Shown piece after piece: positions 24,641-47,606 of a stretch of DNA of 64,000 bases. The position numbers and the translations under genes were made by a program. Below the pieces are notes generated by a model. The model did not search any database. It was not told where the DNA came from and saw only the letters and a list, made by a program, of their open reading frames with translations. Source of the DNA: an uncultured bacterium (GTDB lineage: Bacteria > Fermentibacterota > Fermentibacteria > Fermentibacterales > JCC-6); NCBI GenBank assembly GCA_964423505.1, contig CAYREX010000002.1, forward strand, positions 24,188 to 88,187, in the 5' to 3' direction. Position 1 is the stretch's first letter. The number at the start of each line of letters is the position of its first letter.

Positions 24641-24659
24641 TGTGGATAACCGTGTGGAG
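24641..24659. promoter_or_regulatory. DnaA box(es) in the rpmH-dnaA intergenic region
   Basis: Perfect TGTGGATAA (complement of TTATCCACA) at 24641-24649, followed by a 1-mismatch copy TGTGGAGAA at 24653-24661. Confidence 0.5.
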
Positions 24660-24718
24660 AAGAAACACACCTCCCTACGGGACTTAGGTTTATACGCACG
24701 GACGGCAGCGGTGCCCGA

Positions 24719-26050
24719 ATGAGCCCCGAGCAGCTCTGGGAGCTCTGTCTCGACGGGGCCAGGGACGATCTGGACCCGCTGTCCTTCCAGTCCTGGCTGG
24801 AGAAGTCCTCCTTCCGGGAGCTGGACGGCACCCGGATGGTCATCGAGTTCCCCAACGAGTTCACCGCCAGCCACGCCAAGGCGAGGTTCGGCGAGATGCT
24901 GCAGGCATGCCTGAGCAGGATAAGCGGCAGGAACGACCTCTCTCTGGTCTTCTACGGCCCCCCCGCAGAGCCGACGATGACCCCGGCGAGGTCCCGGGAC
25001 AGGGTGAGGCAGAAGGTCCAGGGAGGGGACTACCTCAGGCCCGGCTACACGTTCGAGCGCTTCGTGGTGGGCCCGAACAACCAGCTGGCCTACTCCGGGG
25101 CCGTGGCGGTCACCGCCGATTCCGGTCAGGTCAAGTACAACCCGCTCTTCATCTACGGAGGCGTAGGCCTGGGCAAGACCCATCTCATCCAGGCCATTGC
25201 CCACAAGGTCAAGGAGAGCGGCAGGGGGAGGACATTCAGGTACCTTTCCGCGGAGCTCTTCCTCCAGCAGTACGTGACCGCACTGGAGAGACAGGAGATA
25301 CCGCTCTTCAGGAACAGGTACCTGAACGTGGACTACCTCCTGATGGACGACATACAGTTCCTGAAGGGCAAGGAGAGGACCCAGGAGGAGTTCTTCCACA
25401 GGTTCAACGAGTTCTATCAGAACGGCAAGCAGATAGTGATAACGGCCGACCGGCCGCCTCACGAACTGGAGGACATCGAGGAGAGGCTGGTGAGCAGGTT
25501 CCAGTCCGGCCTCATAGCCGACATCAAGCCTCCCGAGTACGAGACCCGCCTTGCCATCCTTCACCTGCTGGTCAAGGACGAGTCCGTGGAGGTCCCCGAC
25601 GAGGTCCTCGACTACATAGCCTCCTCGATCCGCAAGAACGTCCGTCAGCTCGCCGGAGTCATACACAGGCTGGCGGCCGCGTCCAGGTTCACCGGATGCT
25701 CCATAGACATGGACATGGCGCAGGGCGAGATAAGCTCGTCGCTGGGCGCTTCCTCCAGAGCCCTCACCCCCGGCAGCATAACCTCACGGGTGGCGGAGGC
25801 CTTCGACGTCACTCCGGGTCAGATACGGGGGAAGGAGAGGAAGCGCTCGGTGCTAATACCGCGCCAGGTGGCCATGTCCCTTATTCGCGAGATGACCAGC
25901 CTGTCACTGAAGGAGATCGGCGCCTTCTTCTCCGGACGGGACCACTCCACCGTCCTCAACTCGATAGAGCGCATCGAGAAGCTGAGCTCCGAGGACCCGG
26001 CCCTCGCCAGGAGGATAGAGGACGTAGGGCGCTCCCTCTCCAGCCTTTGA
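24719..26050 (+). CDS. dnaA: chromosomal replication initiator protein DnaA
   Basis: AAA+ Walker A GGVGLGKTHL, the sensor motifs, and the C-terminal DNA-binding domain (...LSLKEIGAFFSGRDHSTVLNSIERIE...). Confidence 0.95.
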   Translation: MSPEQLWELCLDGARDDLDPLSFQSWLEKSSFRELDGTRMVIEFPNEFTASHAKARFGEMLQACLSRISGRNDLSLVFYGPPAEPTMTPARSRDRVRQKVQGGDYLRPGYTFERFVVGPNNQLAYSGAVAVTADSGQVKYNPLFIYGGVGLGKTHLIQAIAHKVKESGRGRTFRYLSAELFLQQYVTALERQEIPLFRNRYLNVDYLLMDDIQFLKGKERTQEEFFHRFNEFYQNGKQIVITADRPPHELEDIEERLVSRFQSGLIADIKPPEYETRLAILHLLVKDESVEVPDEVLDYIASSIRKNVRQLAGVIHRLAAASRFTGCSIDMDMAQGEISSSLGASSRALTPGSITSRVAEAFDVTPGQIRGKERKRSVLIPRQVAMSLIREMTSLSLKEIGAFFSGRDHSTVLNSIERIEKLSSEDPALARRIEDVGRSLSSL

Positions 26051-26264
26051 GCTCTTTTCCACAGGCCCCCGTTGATAACCGGCCCTCTCCGGGGGGGTGT
26101 GGAAAACCCTCTTCCCACTATCCGGCTATCCACATGTTCTCGACGTTCGTGGTTTACGCTGCAAAGGGCCTGCGTATGGCATCTCGACATTTCCACGAGT
26201 ATAATTACAACAGTAAGGATGTTCTCTCTCTGAGTGTCTATCCTGCAGGGTGGAGGAATTCGAT
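26051..26264. promoter_or_regulatory. oriC candidate (DnaA-box cluster plus AT-rich DUE-like tract) between dnaA and dnaN
   Basis: TTTTCCACA (26055-63), TGTGGAAAA (26097-105), CTATCCACA (~26122-30), TTTCCACG (~26200). AT-rich GAGTATAATTACAACAGTAAGGATGTT immediately upstream of the dnaN RBS. Confidence 0.5.
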
Positions 26265-32158
<5,894 letters not shown>

Positions 32159-32253
32159 GCCTGAAGACGGGAGCTTCCGTAGCGAGGGAGCTCGAGTACT
32201 GGAGCAGGGAGAACGCCACCCGGAGCGTTCCCATCCCCTCTGTCGAGAAGGGA

Positions 32254-35200
32254 ATGCGCCTTCCCTCCCGGTCCGGCGACTCCATGACCGCGGACCCCGG
32301 CACGAGGGCCAGGGTGGAGGCCATCCCCCTCTTCGGAGTGGAATGGACCGCCGCCGGCAGGGCCCTCTCCGTCCTCATCTCCTCCCTGCGGGAGGATGAC
32401 GCCGAGAGGCTGTTCGAGAACATCTCCCACATGAGCGAGCCCCCGCCCATCAGCGAGGAGATGGCGGTCAACTGGTTCCTGGCGATACGGGACCTCCCCT
32501 CCTGCGCCATAGTCACGGCCATACAGGAGTTCCTGCACCTGGGCTGGACGTGGAACCAGATAGGTCCCTCGACCGGCATTTCGTTCGAGGAGCTGCTGGC
32601 CTTCCTCTACCGGGCCTTCGAGACCCTCTCGGAGAACCCGGCGGACATGGAGCTGGCCCGGGAGCTGATAAGGTGCGGCTTCACGTGGCCGGAGAGGTTC
32701 GCCTACATCCTGGACAGGATAAGGACCGGGGGAGCCCCGGTGATAAGGGCCATCGAGAGGGCACGTGAGCTCATGCCGGAGGCCTCCCCTGGCTCGATCC
32801 CGGTTCTGGTCGATTTCGCAGTGGGTATCGGCTGGTACCTGCTGGAGGAGGAGGACCTGCCGATATGGAGGCTGGTCGGCCGGAACGGCGAGCTCCTCTA
32901 CAAGCGCCTGCGGGGGCTGTCGCTCCCCCGCGAGACCCTGAGGCTGCTGGCAGGCTTCCTCGGAAGGATGGAGGAGAGCGGCCAGATGGAGAGGCTGCTG
33001 GAGTTCGCCCTCCCCAGGACGATGCTGTCGATAGTGGGAGACATGCCGGGCAACGTCATGGAGGATGCTCTCGTCAGGCTGTCCAGGGGGACCGTCGCAA
33101 TGCTCAAGCGCAAGGCGGAGAGCGAGATATGCCTGAGCATGCTCTCCTTCCGGGGCGAGCTGGACGAGCCGCTCGAGACCGGTAGGGCGCTGGCGGACGT
33201 GCTGCTGTTCGCCGGCCCCGGAGAGGAGATGGCCGACAACCTCTACGAGCTCCTCGAGATAACCGGGCACGATATGGACTCCCGGGTTGTCAGAGGGCTC
33301 GCCTCGGTGCTGGAGGAGCGAAGGGGCAGGGAGGAGTACGCCGGCCTCGGCCACGAGATACTGATGGACTTCATGAGGACGAGCTGGGAGCTCCTGGCCG
33401 GTGGCGAGGGCTACTCGCGCAAGAAGGTCCATTCCATCGGCAGGCTGATGGACGCAGTCTTCGGCTCCACCGACCCGGCCGCCTCCGTGAGGGAGCTGAA
33501 GGCCCGGGTGAGAGAGTCCGCGCACCCTCCGGAGACGCTCCTGTTCTCCTGCACAATGCTGCTCAGGGGCACGGAGAGGGAGCGGAGTACCGAGGCTCTC
33601 GAGCAGTGCGGCGCATTCGCCAACATCATCACCCTGCTGGACGCGGACTACAGGAGGAGGCTGCTGGAGGGCGACCTGCCCGCCTGGCTGGCTCCGGTCA
33701 GAGACGCCGGGCGCGAGGCGACCGAGGACATCTCCAGGTCACTTGAGCGCATATCGGAGAGGGAGCTCAGGGGCCGCTTCCTCGACAGGCTGGTCACACC
33801 CCTTCTCGTGGATTGCGACCCGACGGACCCGCTGTTCAGCGAGCTGCTCTCCTCCGGCGTGGCTACCTACAACCGCGATCTGGGGATAGAGCAGCTCAGG
33901 GAGGCGGAGACCGAGCTGCTGGGCAAGCTCTTCAGGGCGGAGGACAGGAGCAGGGCGGTCCAGGACACCATGCGGACCATCCTCAACATACCCGGGATAG
34001 AGGACCACAGGGCATCGGAGCTCATCCAGGGCACCAGGGAGCTCTGCGAGGAGCTCTCCCGGCAGGCCGTCTGGCTCGAGGAGAAGGGCAACAGGATGTT
34101 CCGCGGCTTCCTCTCCCGTGGGCTCCAGGACTTCTTCCGCGCCCTCATCGAGAACCCGGGAATGGCCGACAGGCTCACCGGCGGACTGACCGGCGAGCTG
34201 CTCGGGAAGGTAATCCAGGACGGCGAGCGGGAGAGGCAGGTCGCCAGGTGGCAGATGGCCACTCTGGTCGAGCTCTTCGGGAGGATAGTCCCGCTCTCCG
34301 CGGAGATAATGGCCGGCAGGCCGGACCTCTTCGAGGAGTACCTGCGCGAGATGGCCGGGCTCAGCGTGAGGTCGATGCACGGCGAGCCGGCCGGCCACTC
34401 ATTCCTCGGCTGGACGGTCCCGGTTCTCGAGAGACAGCTGGTTGAGGAGTTCATACGCAGGCTCGATGACGAATCCCCGCTGGACGGCATACCGGAGGGG
34501 ATAGTCCCGCAGGCCCTCTTCGACGGCTGGAGCGGCAGCCGGAACAGCGCCTTCGTGATACTCAGGGCCTGCGCATCCAGGCTCAAGCCATTCCTGGCCA
34601 GCAGGACCAGGAGGAGGATACTCGCCCGCGAGGGCAGGCGGCTCGTAGAGGGGCTCCTGGGGAGCGCCCGGGCCGACTTCCTCGAGCCGGAAGCCGAACC
34701 GGAGCTGGCGGGAACGGTATCCGAGCTGGCTGACTACGCCGCGGACACCGACCTGATAGAGGTCGTCCGCTGCATGGAGAGCGGGTTCCCGGACCCGCCT
34801 CCCCCGTGGGAGACCGCGGTCAGGGGTTTCTTCCAGCGCTTCTCCCCCCCCGAGGGCGAGAATCCCTGCCGCCACTGGAGGGAGAGGGCGCTGACCCAGC
34901 TGGACAACATCATGGTGGACGTTCTCCTCCTCTGCAGCGACATGCAGAGCCTCAAGATGATGGACTCGCTGCTGGACGAGTTCGTAGAGGTGGTCGGCTA
35001 CCTGTCGGCAAGCGACGGAGTCGACCTGCCGGTCAGCCTGGACAACCTCTCCAGGTCGCTTTCCGCCGGCCTCTCGCGCCGGGGATCGAGAGGTGTCAGG
35101 GCCGCCGGGAAGAGCCTGGAGAAGACCCTCTACACCTCTCTCTGGAGGCGGAACGCCACCCAGCTCATCAGCGCGGCGGTAGGCGGGCGGGTGCCGACCA

Positions 35201-35805
35201 GACAGCTGGTCTCGGCGCTGTTCGACAGGCTGGCTGAGGAGGACTCCGCCAGGGACAGGCTGCTTTTCACAAGGCGCTACGGAAGCGTTTTCGCAGCGGT
35301 CGAGAGCGGAGTTCTCAGCCGGAAGACCACGGAGATCAAGGCCTTCCGCTCGGTGCTCGAGCACGTCTGGGTCTTCAACGCCGCCTCGGATGCCTCCGGC
35401 TCGATGGTGGAGAACGCCCGCGAGGCAGTGGAGACCTACGTGCAGTACTTCCGTGAGGTAGGTGCGCGAACCGGTGCGGTGAGCGCTCCGGAGGCGGGGG
35501 CGATAAGCCTGGGCATGAAGCGCAGGTACAGGGACAACGCCAACACGGTGGCCACCCTGCTCAAGTGGACCCAAGACCCGGAGAGAGAGAGCCTGCTCGC
35601 CCTCGTCGAGGCGCACCAGCCCCTTCTCGAGGCGGTCAGCCGGGACGCCGAGCTGACCAGGCTGCTCGACGAGCTCTGGACCGACCCCAAGACGAAGAGG
35701 AGCATCAAGTCGATGGCCGACAGGCCCGCGGAGCTCAGGAAGAGGCTCATGAGGGCCGCGGGACGCTGGACGGAGGATGCCGACTCGGGCCTCCACTATG
35801 TCTGA
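32254..35805 (+). CDS. large (1183 aa) all-alpha hypothetical protein, no recognisable domains
   Basis: ATG 32254 after a GAGAAGGGA RBS. Leu/Glu/Arg-rich, no TM helices. Its stop overlaps the downstream asparaginase start (ATGTCTGA). Confidence 0.55.
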   Translation: MRLPSRSGDSMTADPGTRARVEAIPLFGVEWTAAGRALSVLISSLREDDAERLFENISHMSEPPPISEEMAVNWFLAIRDLPSCAIVTAIQEFLHLGWTWNQIGPSTGISFEELLAFLYRAFETLSENPADMELARELIRCGFTWPERFAYILDRIRTGGAPVIRAIERARELMPEASPGSIPVLVDFAVGIGWYLLEEEDLPIWRLVGRNGELLYKRLRGLSLPRETLRLLAGFLGRMEESGQMERLLEFALPRTMLSIVGDMPGNVMEDALVRLSRGTVAMLKRKAESEICLSMLSFRGELDEPLETGRALADVLLFAGPGEEMADNLYELLEITGHDMDSRVVRGLASVLEERRGREEYAGLGHEILMDFMRTSWELLAGGEGYSRKKVHSIGRLMDAVFGSTDPAASVRELKARVRESAHPPETLLFSCTMLLRGTERERSTEALEQCGAFANIITLLDADYRRRLLEGDLPAWLAPVRDAGREATEDISRSLERISERELRGRFLDRLVTPLLVDCDPTDPLFSELLSSGVATYNRDLGIEQLREAETELLGKLFRAEDRSRAVQDTMRTILNIPGIEDHRASELIQGTRELCEELSRQAVWLEEKGNRMFRGFLSRGLQDFFRALIENPGMADRLTGGLTGELLGKVIQDGERERQVARWQMATLVELFGRIVPLSAEIMAGRPDLFEEYLREMAGLSVRSMHGEPAGHSFLGWTVPVLERQLVEEFIRRLDDESPLDGIPEGIVPQALFDGWSGSRNSAFVILRACASRLKPFLASRTRRRILAREGRRLVEGLLGSARADFLEPEAEPELAGTVSELADYAADTDLIEVVRCMESGFPDPPPPWETAVRGFFQRFSPPEGENPCRHWRERALTQLDNIMVDVLLLCSDMQSLKMMDSLLDEFVEVVGYLSASDGVDLPVSLDNLSRSLSAGLSRRGSRGVRAAGKSLEKTLYTSLWRRNATQLISAAVGGRVPTRQLVSALFDRLAEEDSARDRLLFTRRYGSVFAAVESGVLSRKTTEIKAFRSVLEHVWVFNAASDASGSMVENAREAVETYVQYFREVGARTGAVSAPEAGAISLGMKRRYRDNANTVATLLKWTQDPERESLLALVEAHQPLLEAVSRDAELTRLLDELWTDPKTKRSIKSMADRPAELRKRLMRAAGRWTEDADSGLHYV

Positions 35806-36790
35806 CGGCTACAGACGAGTGGCCCTGGTATCGACCGGCGGCACCATCGAGATGATCAGGGGCAGCAGGGGCCTCTCCATGACCGACAGGTTCAACCCGC
35901 TACCCATAGACGGCGAGGTCGTGCCGGACGGCGTCCGGCTCTGCCATCACAAGTTCGCGAGCCTTCCGAGCCCGCACATAACGCCCGTCATGATGGGCGG
36001 GCTCTGCCGCATGCTCCGCGGGCTGACCGAGTGCGGCGACTTCGAGGGAATAGTGGTGACCCACGGCACGGACACACTGGAGGAGAGCGCGTTCCTGGCA
36101 GACTGCTCTCTCCCGGACGACGGTCCGCCGGTAGTCTTCACCGCCGCAATGCGAAGCCCCTCCGAGATGGGGGTGGACGGGCCGAGGAACCTCCGGGGCG
36201 CCATCCTGGTGGCGACGGATGCTGAAGTTCATAACTTGGGAGTTACGGTAGTGCTGAGCGACGAGATCCATGCGGCCGGCCGGGTCACCAAGACCTACAC
36301 GAGCAACGTCAGCAGCTTCAGCTCTCCGGGATACGGGCCGCTCGGCTTCGTCGACCAGGACAGGGTGCTGGTACACAGGAGACCAGCCTGGAGGCTCAGG
36401 CTCCCGCCCATGGAGCTGCGGATGGAGGCTCCCGTATCCCTTGTCAGGGTGGCCTCCGGCTTCGGCGACAGGCCGATACTGGACTGCGTGGAGAGGGGCG
36501 ATGCCGGCATCGTCGTCGAGGCCATGGGCAGGGGGAACGTCCCGCCGCCGGTGGCCGCCGCCGTCGAGACCGCGGTCAGGGAGGGGCTCACGGTATGCGT
36601 CTCGAGCAGGTGTTACATGGGGAGGGTGCTTGGCGTGTACGGCTACGAGGGGGGCGGCGCCGACCTCGAGGAGAGGGGCGCGATTATGGCAGGTGACGTC
36701 CAGGGACACAAGCTGAGGCTCTTCCTCATGGCCGCCCTCGACGCCGGGATGGACCGGGAGCGCATAGCCGAGCTGCTGGCGAAGGCCTAG
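35798..36790 (+). CDS. ansA: L-asparaginase (type I / GatD-like amidohydrolase family)
   Basis: VALVSTGGTIEM (threonine nucleophile motif), VVTHGTDTLEESAF. Confidence 0.8.
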   Translation: MSDGYRRVALVSTGGTIEMIRGSRGLSMTDRFNPLPIDGEVVPDGVRLCHHKFASLPSPHITPVMMGGLCRMLRGLTECGDFEGIVVTHGTDTLEESAFLADCSLPDDGPPVVFTAAMRSPSEMGVDGPRNLRGAILVATDAEVHNLGVTVVLSDEIHAAGRVTKTYTSNVSSFSSPGYGPLGFVDQDRVLVHRRPAWRLRLPPMELRMEAPVSLVRVASGFGDRPILDCVERGDAGIVVEAMGRGNVPPPVAAAVETAVREGLTVCVSSRCYMGRVLGVYGYEGGGADLEERGAIMAGDVQGHKLRLFLMAALDAGMDRERIAELLAKA

Positions 36791-36861: not shown

Positions 36862-37224
36862 ATGCTCGGCAGCGGCTTCACCGCGTACTTCGTGCCGCAC
36901 GACGGCAGGAGACGTTACAGGCTGGAGTTCAGCGGGCTCAAGCTGCTGCTCCTGAGGGTTGCGCTTGCGCTCATACTCCTGGTGGTGGCCGCGGCGGTGA
37001 CCATGCTGGCATTCGGCCTGACGAGCGCAGAACGCCTGTCCGAGCTGAGGGGCTGCGTAGCCAGGCTCGAGGACTCCCTTGCGTCCTCCAGCCTCATAGA
37101 GGCCAGGCTCGAAAGGATCGAGAGCGAGCTCGAGGCCATAGGCGATACGCGGGAGACGATAGTCAACATGACCACCCTGCTCCCGGAGGCCGTCGAAGGG
37201 GACTCGCTGGTCCAGAACCGATAG
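36862..37224 (+). CDS. small membrane-anchored coiled-coil protein, hypothetical
   Basis: One TM segment (LLLLRVALALILLVVAAAVTMLAF) then a heptad-like region. GAAGGAG RBS. Confidence 0.45.
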   Translation: MLGSGFTAYFVPHDGRRRYRLEFSGLKLLLLRVALALILLVVAAAVTMLAFGLTSAERLSELRGCVARLEDSLASSSLIEARLERIESELEAIGDTRETIVNMTTLLPEAVEGDSLVQNR

Positions 37225-37237
37225 GAGGACTCTACCC

Positions 37238-37594
37238 ATGCCGAAGAGAGAGGGCTCCCAGGCGATGGACTCTATGCTCGGCTCGGGGAGCTTCTGCGAC
37301 GGTTCCCTCAAGGTCGAGGGAGGGCTGCGGATAGACGGCACCGTCGACGGAGAGGTGGAGGTAACCGGTACCCTGACAGTCGGGCGCGAGGGGGTCATCA
37401 CCGGAAACGTCAAGGTCGATACCGCCATCGTCGCCGGCCGCATCCGGGGTACCGTGCGGGCCACCAGCCAGCTCGAGCTCCAGGGCGGCTCCAGGCTGGA
37501 GGGGGACGTGTTCACGAGGTCCCTCGTCATCGAGGAGGGCGTCTTCTTCGAGGGCAACTGCAGCATGTCCGAGAGGGAGGCCGGCGAGGCCTGA
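37238..37594 (+). CDS. bactofilin (DUF583 polymer-forming cytoskeletal protein)
   Basis: Beta-helical repeats (...GSLKVEGGLRIDGTVDGEVEVTGTLTVGREGVITGNVKVDTAIVAGRIRGTV...). Confidence 0.75.
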   Translation: MPKREGSQAMDSMLGSGSFCDGSLKVEGGLRIDGTVDGEVEVTGTLTVGREGVITGNVKVDTAIVAGRIRGTVRATSQLELQGGSRLEGDVFTRSLVIEEGVFFEGNCSMSEREAGEA

Positions 37595-37595
37595 T

Positions 37596-37702
37596 TGTGG
37601 AAAATGTGGAAAAACACCGAGCATCGTGGATAACTCCATAAATTACTGTGCCGCAGGAACTTGACTGTATTACTTAAAGTAGTTTCGCAGGTTGTATCCA
37701 CA
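37596..37702. promoter_or_regulatory. AT-rich island with four DnaA boxes upstream of the V-type ATPase operon
   Basis: TGTGGAAAA x2 in direct tandem (37596-37613). CGTGGATAA (37625-33). GTATCCACA (37694-702). AT-rich spacer containing TTGACT (37661-66). Confidence 0.55.
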
Positions 37703-37791
37703 ACTTGCATTGGCAAGGAGTCATAGCCGGGAACCCGCCCGACAGGATCGGTTACCCGGCGGGCTCCGGGACCTTCGAAAGGCTGGTGTCC

Positions 37792-46472: not shown

Positions 46473-47606
46473 GCCGGGCGTTCCTTATTTGATTTGGTAA
46501 GCTATCTTTGTCCCCTACAAGCATGATAAATGAATTTGTTGCATCCAGTGGGTTTCCTGGATACACTCGAAGTATGCCGTATGTGATGAGGTTGGATCAT
46601 CCGGGTAGCCTACACCACGTCATGTCGCATTGCGTGGAGGGATGCTGGGCCTTCTCCGGAGACAGGGCTCGGGAGGATTTCGTCCGGCGACTCACGGGAC
46701 TAGTCACTGAATCTCAACTCGCCTTGCATGCCTGGTGCCTGATGGGAAACCACCTGCATCTCCTCGTGGAGGCTGGCGAGAATGGCATTACCCGACCCAT
46801 GCATCGGTTGCTCTGCGGATTCGCCAAGGCCTACAACAAGAGAGAGGACAGACGCGGCCATGTCTTCGATGCACGCTTCAAATCCATTCTTGTGGAGGGA
46901 TGCCTCTATTATCTCGGTCTCATAGCCTATATCCACCTGAATCCCATCAGAGCCGGGGTCCTGGCAGGCTTGGATGAGCTTGTGGAATACCCCTGGACAG
47001 GACACTCCGAGATTATGGGCGAAGTCGAACGCGGCATTCTGACCTTCGGGAGATTGACAGAGGAGTTGAACACGGACATCGGGACTCTCCGGGCCAGCTA
47101 TAAGTGCTTGCTCGAAAATAGGCTACACAATGATGCCCCGGAGTTCGAGAGCGGTACGTATTGCATTGGTCCTGCAGGTCTGATGGAGTACGCAACCGGG
47201 GTCATGAGCTCCAGGGCTTCCCCGATACTGGGAAGCAGGAGCTTCGCGCTGAAAATGTACTCCCGCTACAGAGGAACCGCCAGGAGAACGCTGAGGTGCA
47301 GGGAGTCACAGCACCGGACCCTGGAGGATTTGCTGTCCTCGTTCTCCACAGAATCCGGGATACCCGTCAGTACTCTGAGAAGTGGGGCGCGGGATCGCAG
47401 GCTTGTGCGAGTCAGGCGGAAGCTGACCACCAGAATGTCAGAGCTTGGCATGTCGCAATCCGATATAGCATCCTTCCTCGGGATATCAGCATCCACGGTT
47501 CACAGAATCCTCAGAGGTCGCGACTCATGCTGCAGGCCGTCTGAGTTCGAATAAAGGCCCAAGCGTTCCCAAATAGCCTTACCAAATCAAGTAAGGAAAG
47601 CCCGGC
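46473..47606 (+). mobile_element. IS-like unit: HUH Y1 (IS200/RAYT-family) transposase gene bracketed by ~34-bp imperfect inverted repeats
   Basis: Left GCCGGGCGTTCCTTATTTGATTTGGTAAGCTAT (46473-46505). Right ATAGCCTTACCAAATCAAGTAAGGAAAGCCCGGC (47573-47606) is its reverse complement with ~30/34 identity. The unit exactly fills the gap between the atpD stop and the elbB-like stop. Confidence 0.6.
46523..47554 (+). CDS. tnpA: IS200-like / REP-associated tyrosine (Y1 HUH) transposase with C-terminal DnaA-domain-IV-like HTH
   Basis: RLDHPGSLHHVMSHCVEG, HUH motif HLHLLVE, catalytic Tyr region YIHLNPIRAG. C-terminal SQSDIASFLGISASTVHRIL. Start uncertain (ATG 46523 or ATG 46574). Confidence 0.7.
   Translation: MINEFVASSGFPGYTRSMPYVMRLDHPGSLHHVMSHCVEGCWAFSGDRAREDFVRRLTGLVTESQLALHAWCLMGNHLHLLVEAGENGITRPMHRLLCGFAKAYNKREDRRGHVFDARFKSILVEGCLYYLGLIAYIHLNPIRAGVLAGLDELVEYPWTGHSEIMGEVERGILTFGRLTEELNTDIGTLRASYKCLLENRLHNDAPEFESGTYCIGPAGLMEYATGVMSSRASPILGSRSFALKMYSRYRGTARRTLRCRESQHRTLEDLLSSFSTESGIPVSTLRSGARDRRLVRVRRKLTTRMSELGMSQSDIASFLGISASTVHRILRGRDSCCRPSEFE

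Follow-up and report, generated by a model that had tools for sequence, protein, structure and literature searches.

A protein family restricted to Fermentibacterota and a nearby lineage, encoded behind gyrA with a probable ATA start over the gyrA stop codon

Layout of the locus and the BIG family

The window analysed in this study is a stretch of 64,000 nucleotides (nt), approximately 66% G+C, from an uncultured bacterium of the phylum Fermentibacterota (GenBank assembly GCA_964423505.1, contig CAYREX010000002.1, positions 24,188 to 88,187 of the forward strand). Our subject is the very large protein encoded directly after gyrA by the open reading frame (ORF) at 32254-35805 on the plus strand, which together with its homologues we call BIG. 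Genes in the window are arranged in the order mnmG, mnmE and yidC on the minus strand, then dnaA, an oriC-like spacer, dnaN (start ATG 26266), dciA, gyrB, gyrA, BIG and a gene for an asparaginase. These are followed by a gene for a 120-residue transmembrane (TM) and coiled-coil protein, a bactofilin gene, a second cluster of DnaA boxes and a V-type ATPase operon. The genes and signals that bear most directly on BIG are as follows.

27724..29646, plus strand: gyrB (Pfam HATPase_c, DNA_gyraseB, Toprim and DNA_gyraseB_C)
29636..32158, plus strand: gyrA (PF00521, E 1.6e-161, and PF03989), with a TTG start and a TAG stop at 32156-32158
32143..32148, plus strand: Shine-Dalgarno-like GGAGGA in the 3' end of gyrA (GGAG at 32143-32146, 8-nt spacer to ATA)
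32155..32157, plus strand: probable non-canonical ATA start of BIG, where ATAG at 32155-32158 overlaps the gyrA stop TAG at 32156-32158
32155..32253, plus strand: N-terminal extension of BIG, 33 codons in a conserved frame, missed by ORF finders and by the NCBI call
32254..35805, plus strand: BIG as first delimited, from an ATG start, 1183 amino acids (aa)
32155-35805, plus strand: BIG, probable full gene of 1216 codons from ATA, its upstream frame being conserved as protein
35798..36790, plus strand: cytosolic class-1 L-asparaginase homologue, 330 aa (PF00710, PF17763)

Junctions between consecutive genes are formed as follows.

27395: dnaN/dciA, TTGA, or else a 23-nt gap
27724-27727: dciA/gyrB, ATGA, with the gyrB ATG over the dciA stop
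29636-29646: gyrB/gyrA, TTGACGTCTGA, an 11-nt overlap with the gyrA TTG
32155-32158: gyrA/BIG, ATAG
35798-35805: BIG/asparaginase, ATGTCTGA, with the BIG TGA at 35803-35805 and the asparaginase ATG at 35798-35800

No terminator-like site was seen on the plus strand between 24000 and 38500. These junctions place BIG as one cistron in the polycistron dnaN-dciA-gyrB-gyrA-BIG-asparaginase close to the origin, where each frame overlaps the next, and such overlap is the construction style of the whole operon from dciA, and possibly dnaN, through the asparaginase gene. The order gyrA, BIG, asparaginase, TM/coiled-coil protein and bactofilin is the same in essentially every related locus across the phylum.

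A preliminary description of the window had characterized the protein behind gyrA as very large, rich in Leu, Glu and Arg, and devoid of TM segments or any assignable motif, and each of these points is borne out by its composition, its hydropathy and the family searches described below. Leucine accounts for 13.3% of the residues of ORF 32254-35805, arginine for 10.8% and glutamate for 10.1%, with a predicted isoelectric point (pI) of 5.15. The protein is soluble by prediction, and no TM-like stretch is present, the maximum 19-residue Kyte-Doolittle mean being 1.4.

A word-indexed search with BIG returned six clusters at 43-100% identity, and further searches of this type gave no additional relatives. 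When 1.84 billion representative proteins were searched exhaustively with a profile, just 22 matched, including full-length proteins at 25-32% identity. Scanning one genome per species recovered 23 loci, from metagenome-assembled genomes titled Candidatus Fermentibacteria, Fermentibacteraceae, Aegiribacteria or 'uncultured bacterium', and a metagenome scan contributed 34 further loci whose G+C content ranges from 37% to 68%. The homologues, from approximately 60 loci, are colinear and full length (1184-1211 aa, 21-47% identity), and conservation spans the entire protein with a peak at residues 1076-1100. The preliminary description had allowed that the large ORF might turn out to be a frameshifted fusion of several known genes. 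Given that colinear, full-length homologues conserved from end to end occur at some 60 loci, and that known domains are absent, we have ruled this out. Thus, the comparative evidence indicates that BIG is a real, single, conserved gene, and the distribution of the loci indicates that the family is confined to Fermentibacterota (Candidatus Fermentibacteria/Aegiribacteria) plus one nearby lineage.

No Pfam or NCBIfam family was matched by the whole protein, by six 200-aa pieces of it (E up to 10) or by 14 divergent homologues (E up to 5), and a broader profile built from 14 sequences found no match among PDB sequences (E up to 10). Remote-homology and structure analyses, which the preliminary description had recommended, yielded an all-alpha model and neither a family nor a fold. 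When supplied with 14 sequences, AlphaFold2 predicted entirely helical secondary structure with a mean predicted local distance difference test (pLDDT) score of 78.8 and a predicted template modelling (pTM) score of 0.47; with six sequences the prediction was poor (pLDDT 55) and its Foldseek matches are meaningless. BIG thus resembles helical-repeat scaffolds (HEAT/ARM/TPR or designed) in its predicted all-helical content, but no PDB fold was matched significantly, and the best structural matches, which are to designed helical-repeat proteins, are themselves non-significant. Internal repeats were sought by comparing segment against segment with hhalign, which gave a best probability of 29%, and no Pfam repeat family was matched. 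The possibility that BIG is a HEAT/ARM/TPR/Sel1 repeat protein was rejected on these grounds.

Several other assignments were considered. SMC or condensin features were not apparent, since no family was matched, a single homologue matched SMC_hinge at E 0.016, below the cut-off, and there was no structural match. None of BIG, the asparaginase and the 120-aa protein matched a PADLOC model for anti-phage defence (E up to 0.1), and we rejected the view that the locus is a known defence system of this kind. Trp, Leu, Gly and Phe make up most of the invariant residues in BIG, to which a scattering of Arg, Asp and Glu is added, and inspection of them revealed no nucleotide-binding or catalytic motif. 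The segment at 1074-1094 (RTGAVSAPEAGAISLGMKRRYRDNA) is the most conserved of the protein, yet AlphaFold2 predicts it with low confidence, as poorly ordered. This pattern would fit a partner-binding segment.

With these results in mind, we conclude that BIG fits no known family, whether of sequence or of fold, and that it represents a new protein family by elimination. The predicted structure suggests, with low confidence, a cytoplasmic, non-enzymatic, all-alpha protein of the scaffold type. Giant hypothetical proteins limited to a single lineage occur commonly in candidate phyla, and the novelty here is limited to BIG as a protein family, with no new mechanism demonstrated. Literature searches on Fermentibacteria with asparaginase, on genes downstream of gyrA, and on gyrase, bactofilin and the origin found nothing relevant, and the Hyd24-12 genome paper (PMC5030696) leaves the BIG and asparaginase genes undiscussed.

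The start codon of BIG

Gene-calling programs choose differing internal ATG or GTG codons as the start of BIG, the NCBI call being ATG 32284, and the preliminary description had used ATG 32254. The ORF that it delimited, 32254-35805, does exist, but its start was probably placed too late. Given that the frame is conserved as protein for 33 codons further upstream, as far as ATA at 32155-32157, the gene probably spans 32155-35805. Homologues share the peptide IDVQEIVRxIEAWSxENxLRSxxPPEVGKGFSLP upstream of the annotated ATG, and this conserved sequence reaches back to the gyrA stop. Among 21 aligned homologues, pairwise differences in the extension amount to 0.23, 0.20 and 0.51 at the first, second and third codon positions, and the BIG frame contains no in-frame stops, compared with 61 and 17 in the other two frames. 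Moreover, nine loci are devoid of any ATG, GTG or TTG for 74-91 codons.

ATA is the first codon of the conserved frame in approximately 26 loci, where it overlaps the gyrA stop as ATAG or ATAA, and in two others (L001 and L021) it is located 1 nt past a TGA stop of gyrA. Altogether, an ATA at this position is common to approximately 30 species. All 22 sequences examined have a GGAG or GAGG core between -9 and -12 relative to ATA. This core is GGAG at -11 in 16 of them, GAGG at -11 (with GGAG at -10) in five, and GGAG at -12 in the window. The spacing of the GGAG core is constant, at 7-8 nt upstream of ATA, despite differing C-terminal peptides of GyrA. In the window (32100-32158), the GyrA C-terminus is a strongly acidic tail, and GGAGGA is embedded in the codons of this tail.

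More distant relatives carry canonical starts at this point. The deepest clade of the family has ATGA, cTGATG, GTGA or TTGATG at the site homologous to ATA, such that the BIG start and the gyrA stop overlap in at least 12 distinct deep-clade loci, whereas an intermediate clade has an ATG located 5-39 nt past the gyrA stop. For members of the ATAA group, one A-to-G change would give back ATGA, and no locus has it. Three different start solutions (ATGA, TGATG and ATAG/ATAA) therefore keep the overlap with gyrA, which suggests selection on coupled expression, beyond mere proximity.

We judge that BIG probably starts at ATA 32155-32157, and that its initiation is probably coupled to the translation of gyrA. 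Translationally coupled cistrons of the ATGA type are well known, as are regulated non-AUG starts such as the AUU of Escherichia coli infC. The BIG junction resembles the former in having a 4-nt start/stop overlap with a Shine-Dalgarno site inside the upstream gene, and it resembles the latter in that a weak near-cognate start would be expected to throttle expression. It differs from these precedents in that the start is ATA, is conserved in approximately 30 species and is tied to TAG or TAA stops of gyrA, all of this being known here from sequence alone. AUA initiation in E. coli has been reported to proceed at approximately 1-2% of the level of AUG (10.1101/063800), and if this efficiency applies, synthesis of BIG would amount to a small fraction of that of GyrA. 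Public gene calls for the family probably miss 33-43 N-terminal residues, the start being non-canonical. The most concrete unusual feature of the locus is this conserved ATA start and its coupling to the gyrA stop, and for comparative work the family offers a clean example of such a start, conserved and coupled to the stop codon of the gene before it.

A different account of the same sequences is that BIG is produced as a GyrA-BIG fusion by programmed -1 frameshifting before the gyrA stop, with GGAG serving as the stimulator. The BIG frame is indeed in the -1 register relative to gyrA and stays open where gyrA stops, canonical starts are absent from the nine loci noted above, and the upstream GGAG is conserved; Shine-Dalgarno-like elements are known to stimulate frameshifting in dnaX and prfB. 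However, in most loci the BIG frame is closed by a stop located 5-8 codons upstream of ATA, and no slippery heptamer of the form X XXY YYZ occurs between that stop and ATA (GGGAGAATCGGAATAG; AGAGGAGCAGAAATAA). The plain ATG or GTG that deeper clades carry at the homologous codon, and the placement of ATA 1 nt after the gyrA stop in L001 and L021, are likewise difficult to reconcile with a fusion, which we consider highly improbable. Initiation at ATA is the reading we carry forward.

BIG and the asparaginase

The enzyme encoded downstream of BIG matches PF00710 (E 2.7e-44, 151.4 bits against a cut-off of 22.5) and PF17763 (E 2.2e-23, 82.8 bits against a cut-off of 34.6). An alternative in-frame start, ATG 35777, would create a 29-nt overlap with BIG; the NCBI call uses 35798. 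Its closest solved relative is 9d91_A (E 2e-59), to which it aligns end to end (residues 7-323 against 4-314). The motifs TGGTIEM, THGTDTLEE and RVTKT are invariant in 26 orthologues and recur in 9d91_A, and thus the catalytic Thr (in TGGT) and Lys are present, along with the Thr-Asp pair of HGTDT. In these respects the protein resembles free-standing cytosolic class-1 L-asparaginases (9d91_A and the 8h49/7c91 group), with the same TGGT, HGTDT and K motifs and no extra domain, docking or otherwise, relative to the solved enzymes. It differs from them in scoring below all NCBIfam cut-offs for asparaginase and GatD, and in being the last overlapping cistron of a replication/gyrase operon. The scores are 96 bits against 260.5 for type I, and 143.4 against 314.3 (TIGR00520) and 129 against 506 (NF008304) for type II, the type II match covering residues 68-326 only.

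The preliminary description had suggested a comparison with archaeal GatD/GatE, the Glu-tRNA(Gln) amidotransferase in which an asparaginase-family protein is likewise encoded beside a larger one. This comparison fails on its defining features. The enzyme scores 99.6 bits against a cut-off of 310 (NF003217) and 89.5 against 324 (TIGR02153) with the GatD models, and it has no GatD N-terminal domain, given that it aligns with the two models only from positions 75 and 62 onward and itself starts six residues before TGGT. BIG, for its part, lacks GatB_N, GatB_Yqey and any other Pfam match. On this evidence the protein is best described as a divergent, apparently catalytically competent cytosolic L-asparaginase, an ordinary enzyme and a new member of a known family, that is probably co-transcribed with BIG.

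Whether the two proteins work together is a separate matter. The preliminary description observed that the BIG stop overlaps the asparaginase ATG, and this is confirmed by ATGTCTGA at 35798-35805, an octamer also present in seven other loci. It further took the overlap to imply co-translation and probably a physical complex. In its fuller form, this hypothesis makes BIG a giant scaffold that carries the asparaginase in a stable complex, with the enzyme either delivering ammonia or deamidating a substrate that BIG holds, as in GatD/GatE. The co-occurrence analysis that had been recommended shows that, among loci containing downstream sequence, the two genes adjoin in all but two (L038 and L032), and this pairing persists down to 21-27% identity in BIG. 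Approximately 43 of 49 distinct junctions overlap or are separated by no more than 30 nt, some of the overlap values being unreliable where alignments ran past the stop. An overlap of 23 nt (AATGACGG...TCTGA) occurs in approximately 12 loci and gaps of 1-170 nt in others, and a conserved C-terminal tail of BIG (N-D-G-L/I-x-Y/F-V) is encoded within the overlap.

These observations speak for a complex. However, since overlap is found at every junction of the operon, whose products do not make up one complex, the overlap between BIG and the asparaginase cannot by itself indicate a complex, and since the synteny of the block is frozen phylum-wide, their adjacency is not specific to the two. BIG also occurs without its partner: L038, a Fermentibacterota genome, on a 234-kb contig encodes an intact BIG of 1193 residues followed by 175 nt, the TM/coiled-coil gene and the bactofilin gene, with no asparaginase at the locus, and the BIG homologue P0025 of L032, described below, is likewise without one. 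At positions 9565-9739 of L038, the loss of the asparaginase gene is clean and has left the 175-nt spacer.

All distance matrices correlate at approximately 0.9 via shared phylogeny alone. When gyrA is controlled for, the partial correlations of pairwise distances are 0.26 for BIG and asparaginase, 0.38 for BIG and bactofilin, and 0.21 for asparaginase and bactofilin, and thus there is no excess that would indicate specific co-evolution of BIG with the asparaginase in this mirror-tree style of comparison, which is uninformative here. Given also that the enzyme lacks a docking domain and aligns end to end with free-standing relatives, that it falls far short of the GatD cut-offs, and that BIG has no GatB or GatE domain, we regard the complex as unlikely and the implication drawn from the overlap as unsupported. 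Of the two prospects that had been offered, a new amidase complex or a lineage-specific system, what survives is that BIG is a lineage-specific gene. More generally, a start/stop overlap is no evidence of a protein complex where an entire operon is built in this manner.

Possible roles of BIG and the surrounding origin features

gyrA is found upstream of BIG in every locus that contains upstream sequence. This universal adjacency, the overlap kept through three start solutions, and the remote homologue P0025 are the grounds on which we link BIG to gyrA. P0025 (1475 residues, locus L032) is the only remote homologue found, aligning with BIG at an hhalign probability of 99.3% over 778 columns. 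Its gene follows gyrA, and its neighbours otherwise differ from those of the BIG locus on both sides: downstream are genes for DUF1257, DUF2997, TPR and PatA_N proteins, with no asparaginase and no bactofilin nearby.

In the scheme that we propose, ribosomes finishing gyrA, or recruited by the GGAG site, would initiate at the weak ATA of BIG, such that BIG would be made in small, gyrA-linked amounts, and ribosomes finishing BIG would re-initiate at the asparaginase ATG. BIG would serve as an adaptor or scaffold that works alongside DNA gyrase or the origin-proximal nucleoid, residues 1074-1094 would be its partner-binding site, and the asparaginase would be an ordinary L-asparaginase that is simply co-expressed. 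Our best overall explanation of the locus, which we hold tentatively and at less than even confidence, is accordingly modest in scope: BIG would be a non-enzymatic scaffold in a gyrA-coupled polycistron, of low dosage, that possibly acts with gyrase or the nucleoid. The specific part of this, a scaffold or adaptor role alongside gyrase or the nucleoid near the origin, is a guess, tentative at best and perhaps doubtful. The most specific version, in which BIG is a gyrase- or origin-associated Fermentibacterota factor whose dosage is hard-wired to GyrA by termination-coupled AUA initiation, seems to us rather doubtful. If true, BIG would add to bacterial DNA topology or chromosome organisation an accessory component that is new and has a new fold. 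It would also be a new type of accessory factor for gyrase, an essential and drug-targeted enzyme, from a phylum that is uncultured and abounds in anaerobic digesters and sediments.

Several points weigh against this proposal. No result ties BIG to gyrase physically or functionally, ATA initiation is inferred from comparative data, and the adjacency to gyrA could be inherited gene order in a wholly frozen region. The domain arrangement of BIG is uncertain at a pTM of 0.47. Homologues of BIG are acidic (pI 5.0-6.5), which disfavours direct DNA binding. A match between BIG residues 568-618 (LNIPGIEDHRASELI) and the N-terminal region of RadA, obtained with a 22-sequence profile, is weak (E 0.077) and was absent with the broader profile of 14 sequences; in the AlphaFold2 model these residues form a helix, a 7-residue loop and a helix. 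Given a weak match that failed to reappear, helix-hairpin-helix DNA binding by BIG is not adopted here as an assignment. Finally, the 201-nt spacer between gyrA and the P0025 gene (4897-5097 of L032) contains a terminator-like, G+C-rich hairpin and T-run (gccccgcc...ggcagggcttttta), and the P0025 gene appears to have its own promoter region. The case of P0025 is thus one of adjacency only, on a single contig, and the support it lends to an operon link with gyrA is weakened.

The point about frozen gene order can be taken further, to the view that BIG is functionally tied to none of its neighbours and is a fast-evolving, lineage-specific protein lodged in a housekeeping operon whose order has been fixed by descent. 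Synteny extends over the entire 13-kb block in all loci, BIG evolves at approximately 3.5 times the rate of its neighbours (Kimura distance 1.4 compared with 0.4-0.5), and shared phylogeny by itself accounts for the distance correlations of approximately 0.9. Less readily explained in this manner are the persistence of the start/stop overlap with gyrA via ATGA, TGATG and ATAG/ATAA, which suggests selection on coupled expression, and the retention of ATA in approximately 30 species with no reversion of any ATAA locus to ATGA. We consider this view doubtful, but a serious contender to the gyrA-coupled scaffold.

Features further downstream, and those around dnaA, bring in another candidate association.

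24641-24661 and 26055-26134: clusters of DnaA boxes, upstream of dnaA and within the dnaA-dnaN spacer (26051-26265), respectively
24719-26050, plus strand: dnaA (DnaA by Pfam)
36862..37224, plus strand: protein of 120 aa consisting, judged from its translation, of a short tail in the cytoplasm, a single TM helix and a coiled-coil-like region; its position before the bactofilin gene is conserved
37238..37594, plus strand: bactofilin (PF04519, E 2.4e-27)
37596..37702, both strands: four DnaA-box-like 9-mers (TTATCCACA, no more than one mismatch) in an AT-rich spacer (37595-37790) before the V-type ATPase operon

The gene pair for the 120-aa protein and the bactofilin is kept in every related locus. 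The smaller protein has no peptidase domain, and we take it to resemble the membrane or coiled-coil partners that are often encoded beside bactofilins. It could be proposed that BIG belongs with this module, as a large cytoplasmic adaptor that, for example, anchors the origin to the envelope. Both genes follow BIG in every locus, including L038 where the asparaginase gene is missing, the block closes at a conserved DnaA-box cluster, and the partial correlation between BIG and bactofilin is the highest of the three, if weak. Arguing the other way, the asparaginase gene and a 71-nt gap separate BIG from the pair, no bactofilin is encoded near P0025, and the difference between the correlations is small and carries no significance value. 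A precedent is offered by the bactofilin-PadC-ParAB system of Myxococcus xanthus, in which bactofilin scaffolds that position ParB-parS are documented (10.1101/2020.06.17.156356). The likeness consists of a bactofilin encoded near origin functions and a large non-enzymatic adaptor, a possible role for BIG; no homology to PadC or ParB was found in BIG, and the likeness serves as a lead from genomic context. We judge membership of BIG in the bactofilin module to be decidedly unlikely, and the gyrA-coupled scaffold remains our preferred explanation.

The window contains 14 DnaA boxes where 2.6 are expected, and the cumulative GC-skew minimum falls at approximately 24-26 kb. The dnaA-dnaN region with its DnaA-box clusters is therefore probably oriC. 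A TATAAT-type promoter-like site is located in the dnaA-dnaN spacer at 26176-26205. The geometry of the boxes after the bactofilin gene is the same in 42 of 52 related loci, with two or three minus-strand boxes that lie, counted from the bactofilin stop, at approximately +25, +34 and +54 nt and a single plus-strand box at approximately +120 nt. Lying 11.5 kb away from the dnaA-dnaN spacer, this cluster might form another portion of oriC, or else a promoter under DnaA control.

Two further ORFs in the window merit brief mention. The first, at 24907-26268 (plus strand, 453 aa), overlaps dnaA in another frame, has no match and is probably an artefact of high G+C content. The second, at 46508-47554 (348 aa), is located just past the V-type ATPase operon where the local G+C content drops to 60%. 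It carries a C-terminal helix-turn-helix (HTH_31/HTH_3) and a weak match to IS200-like Y1 transposases (E 8.5e-4), and may be the remnant of a mobile element.

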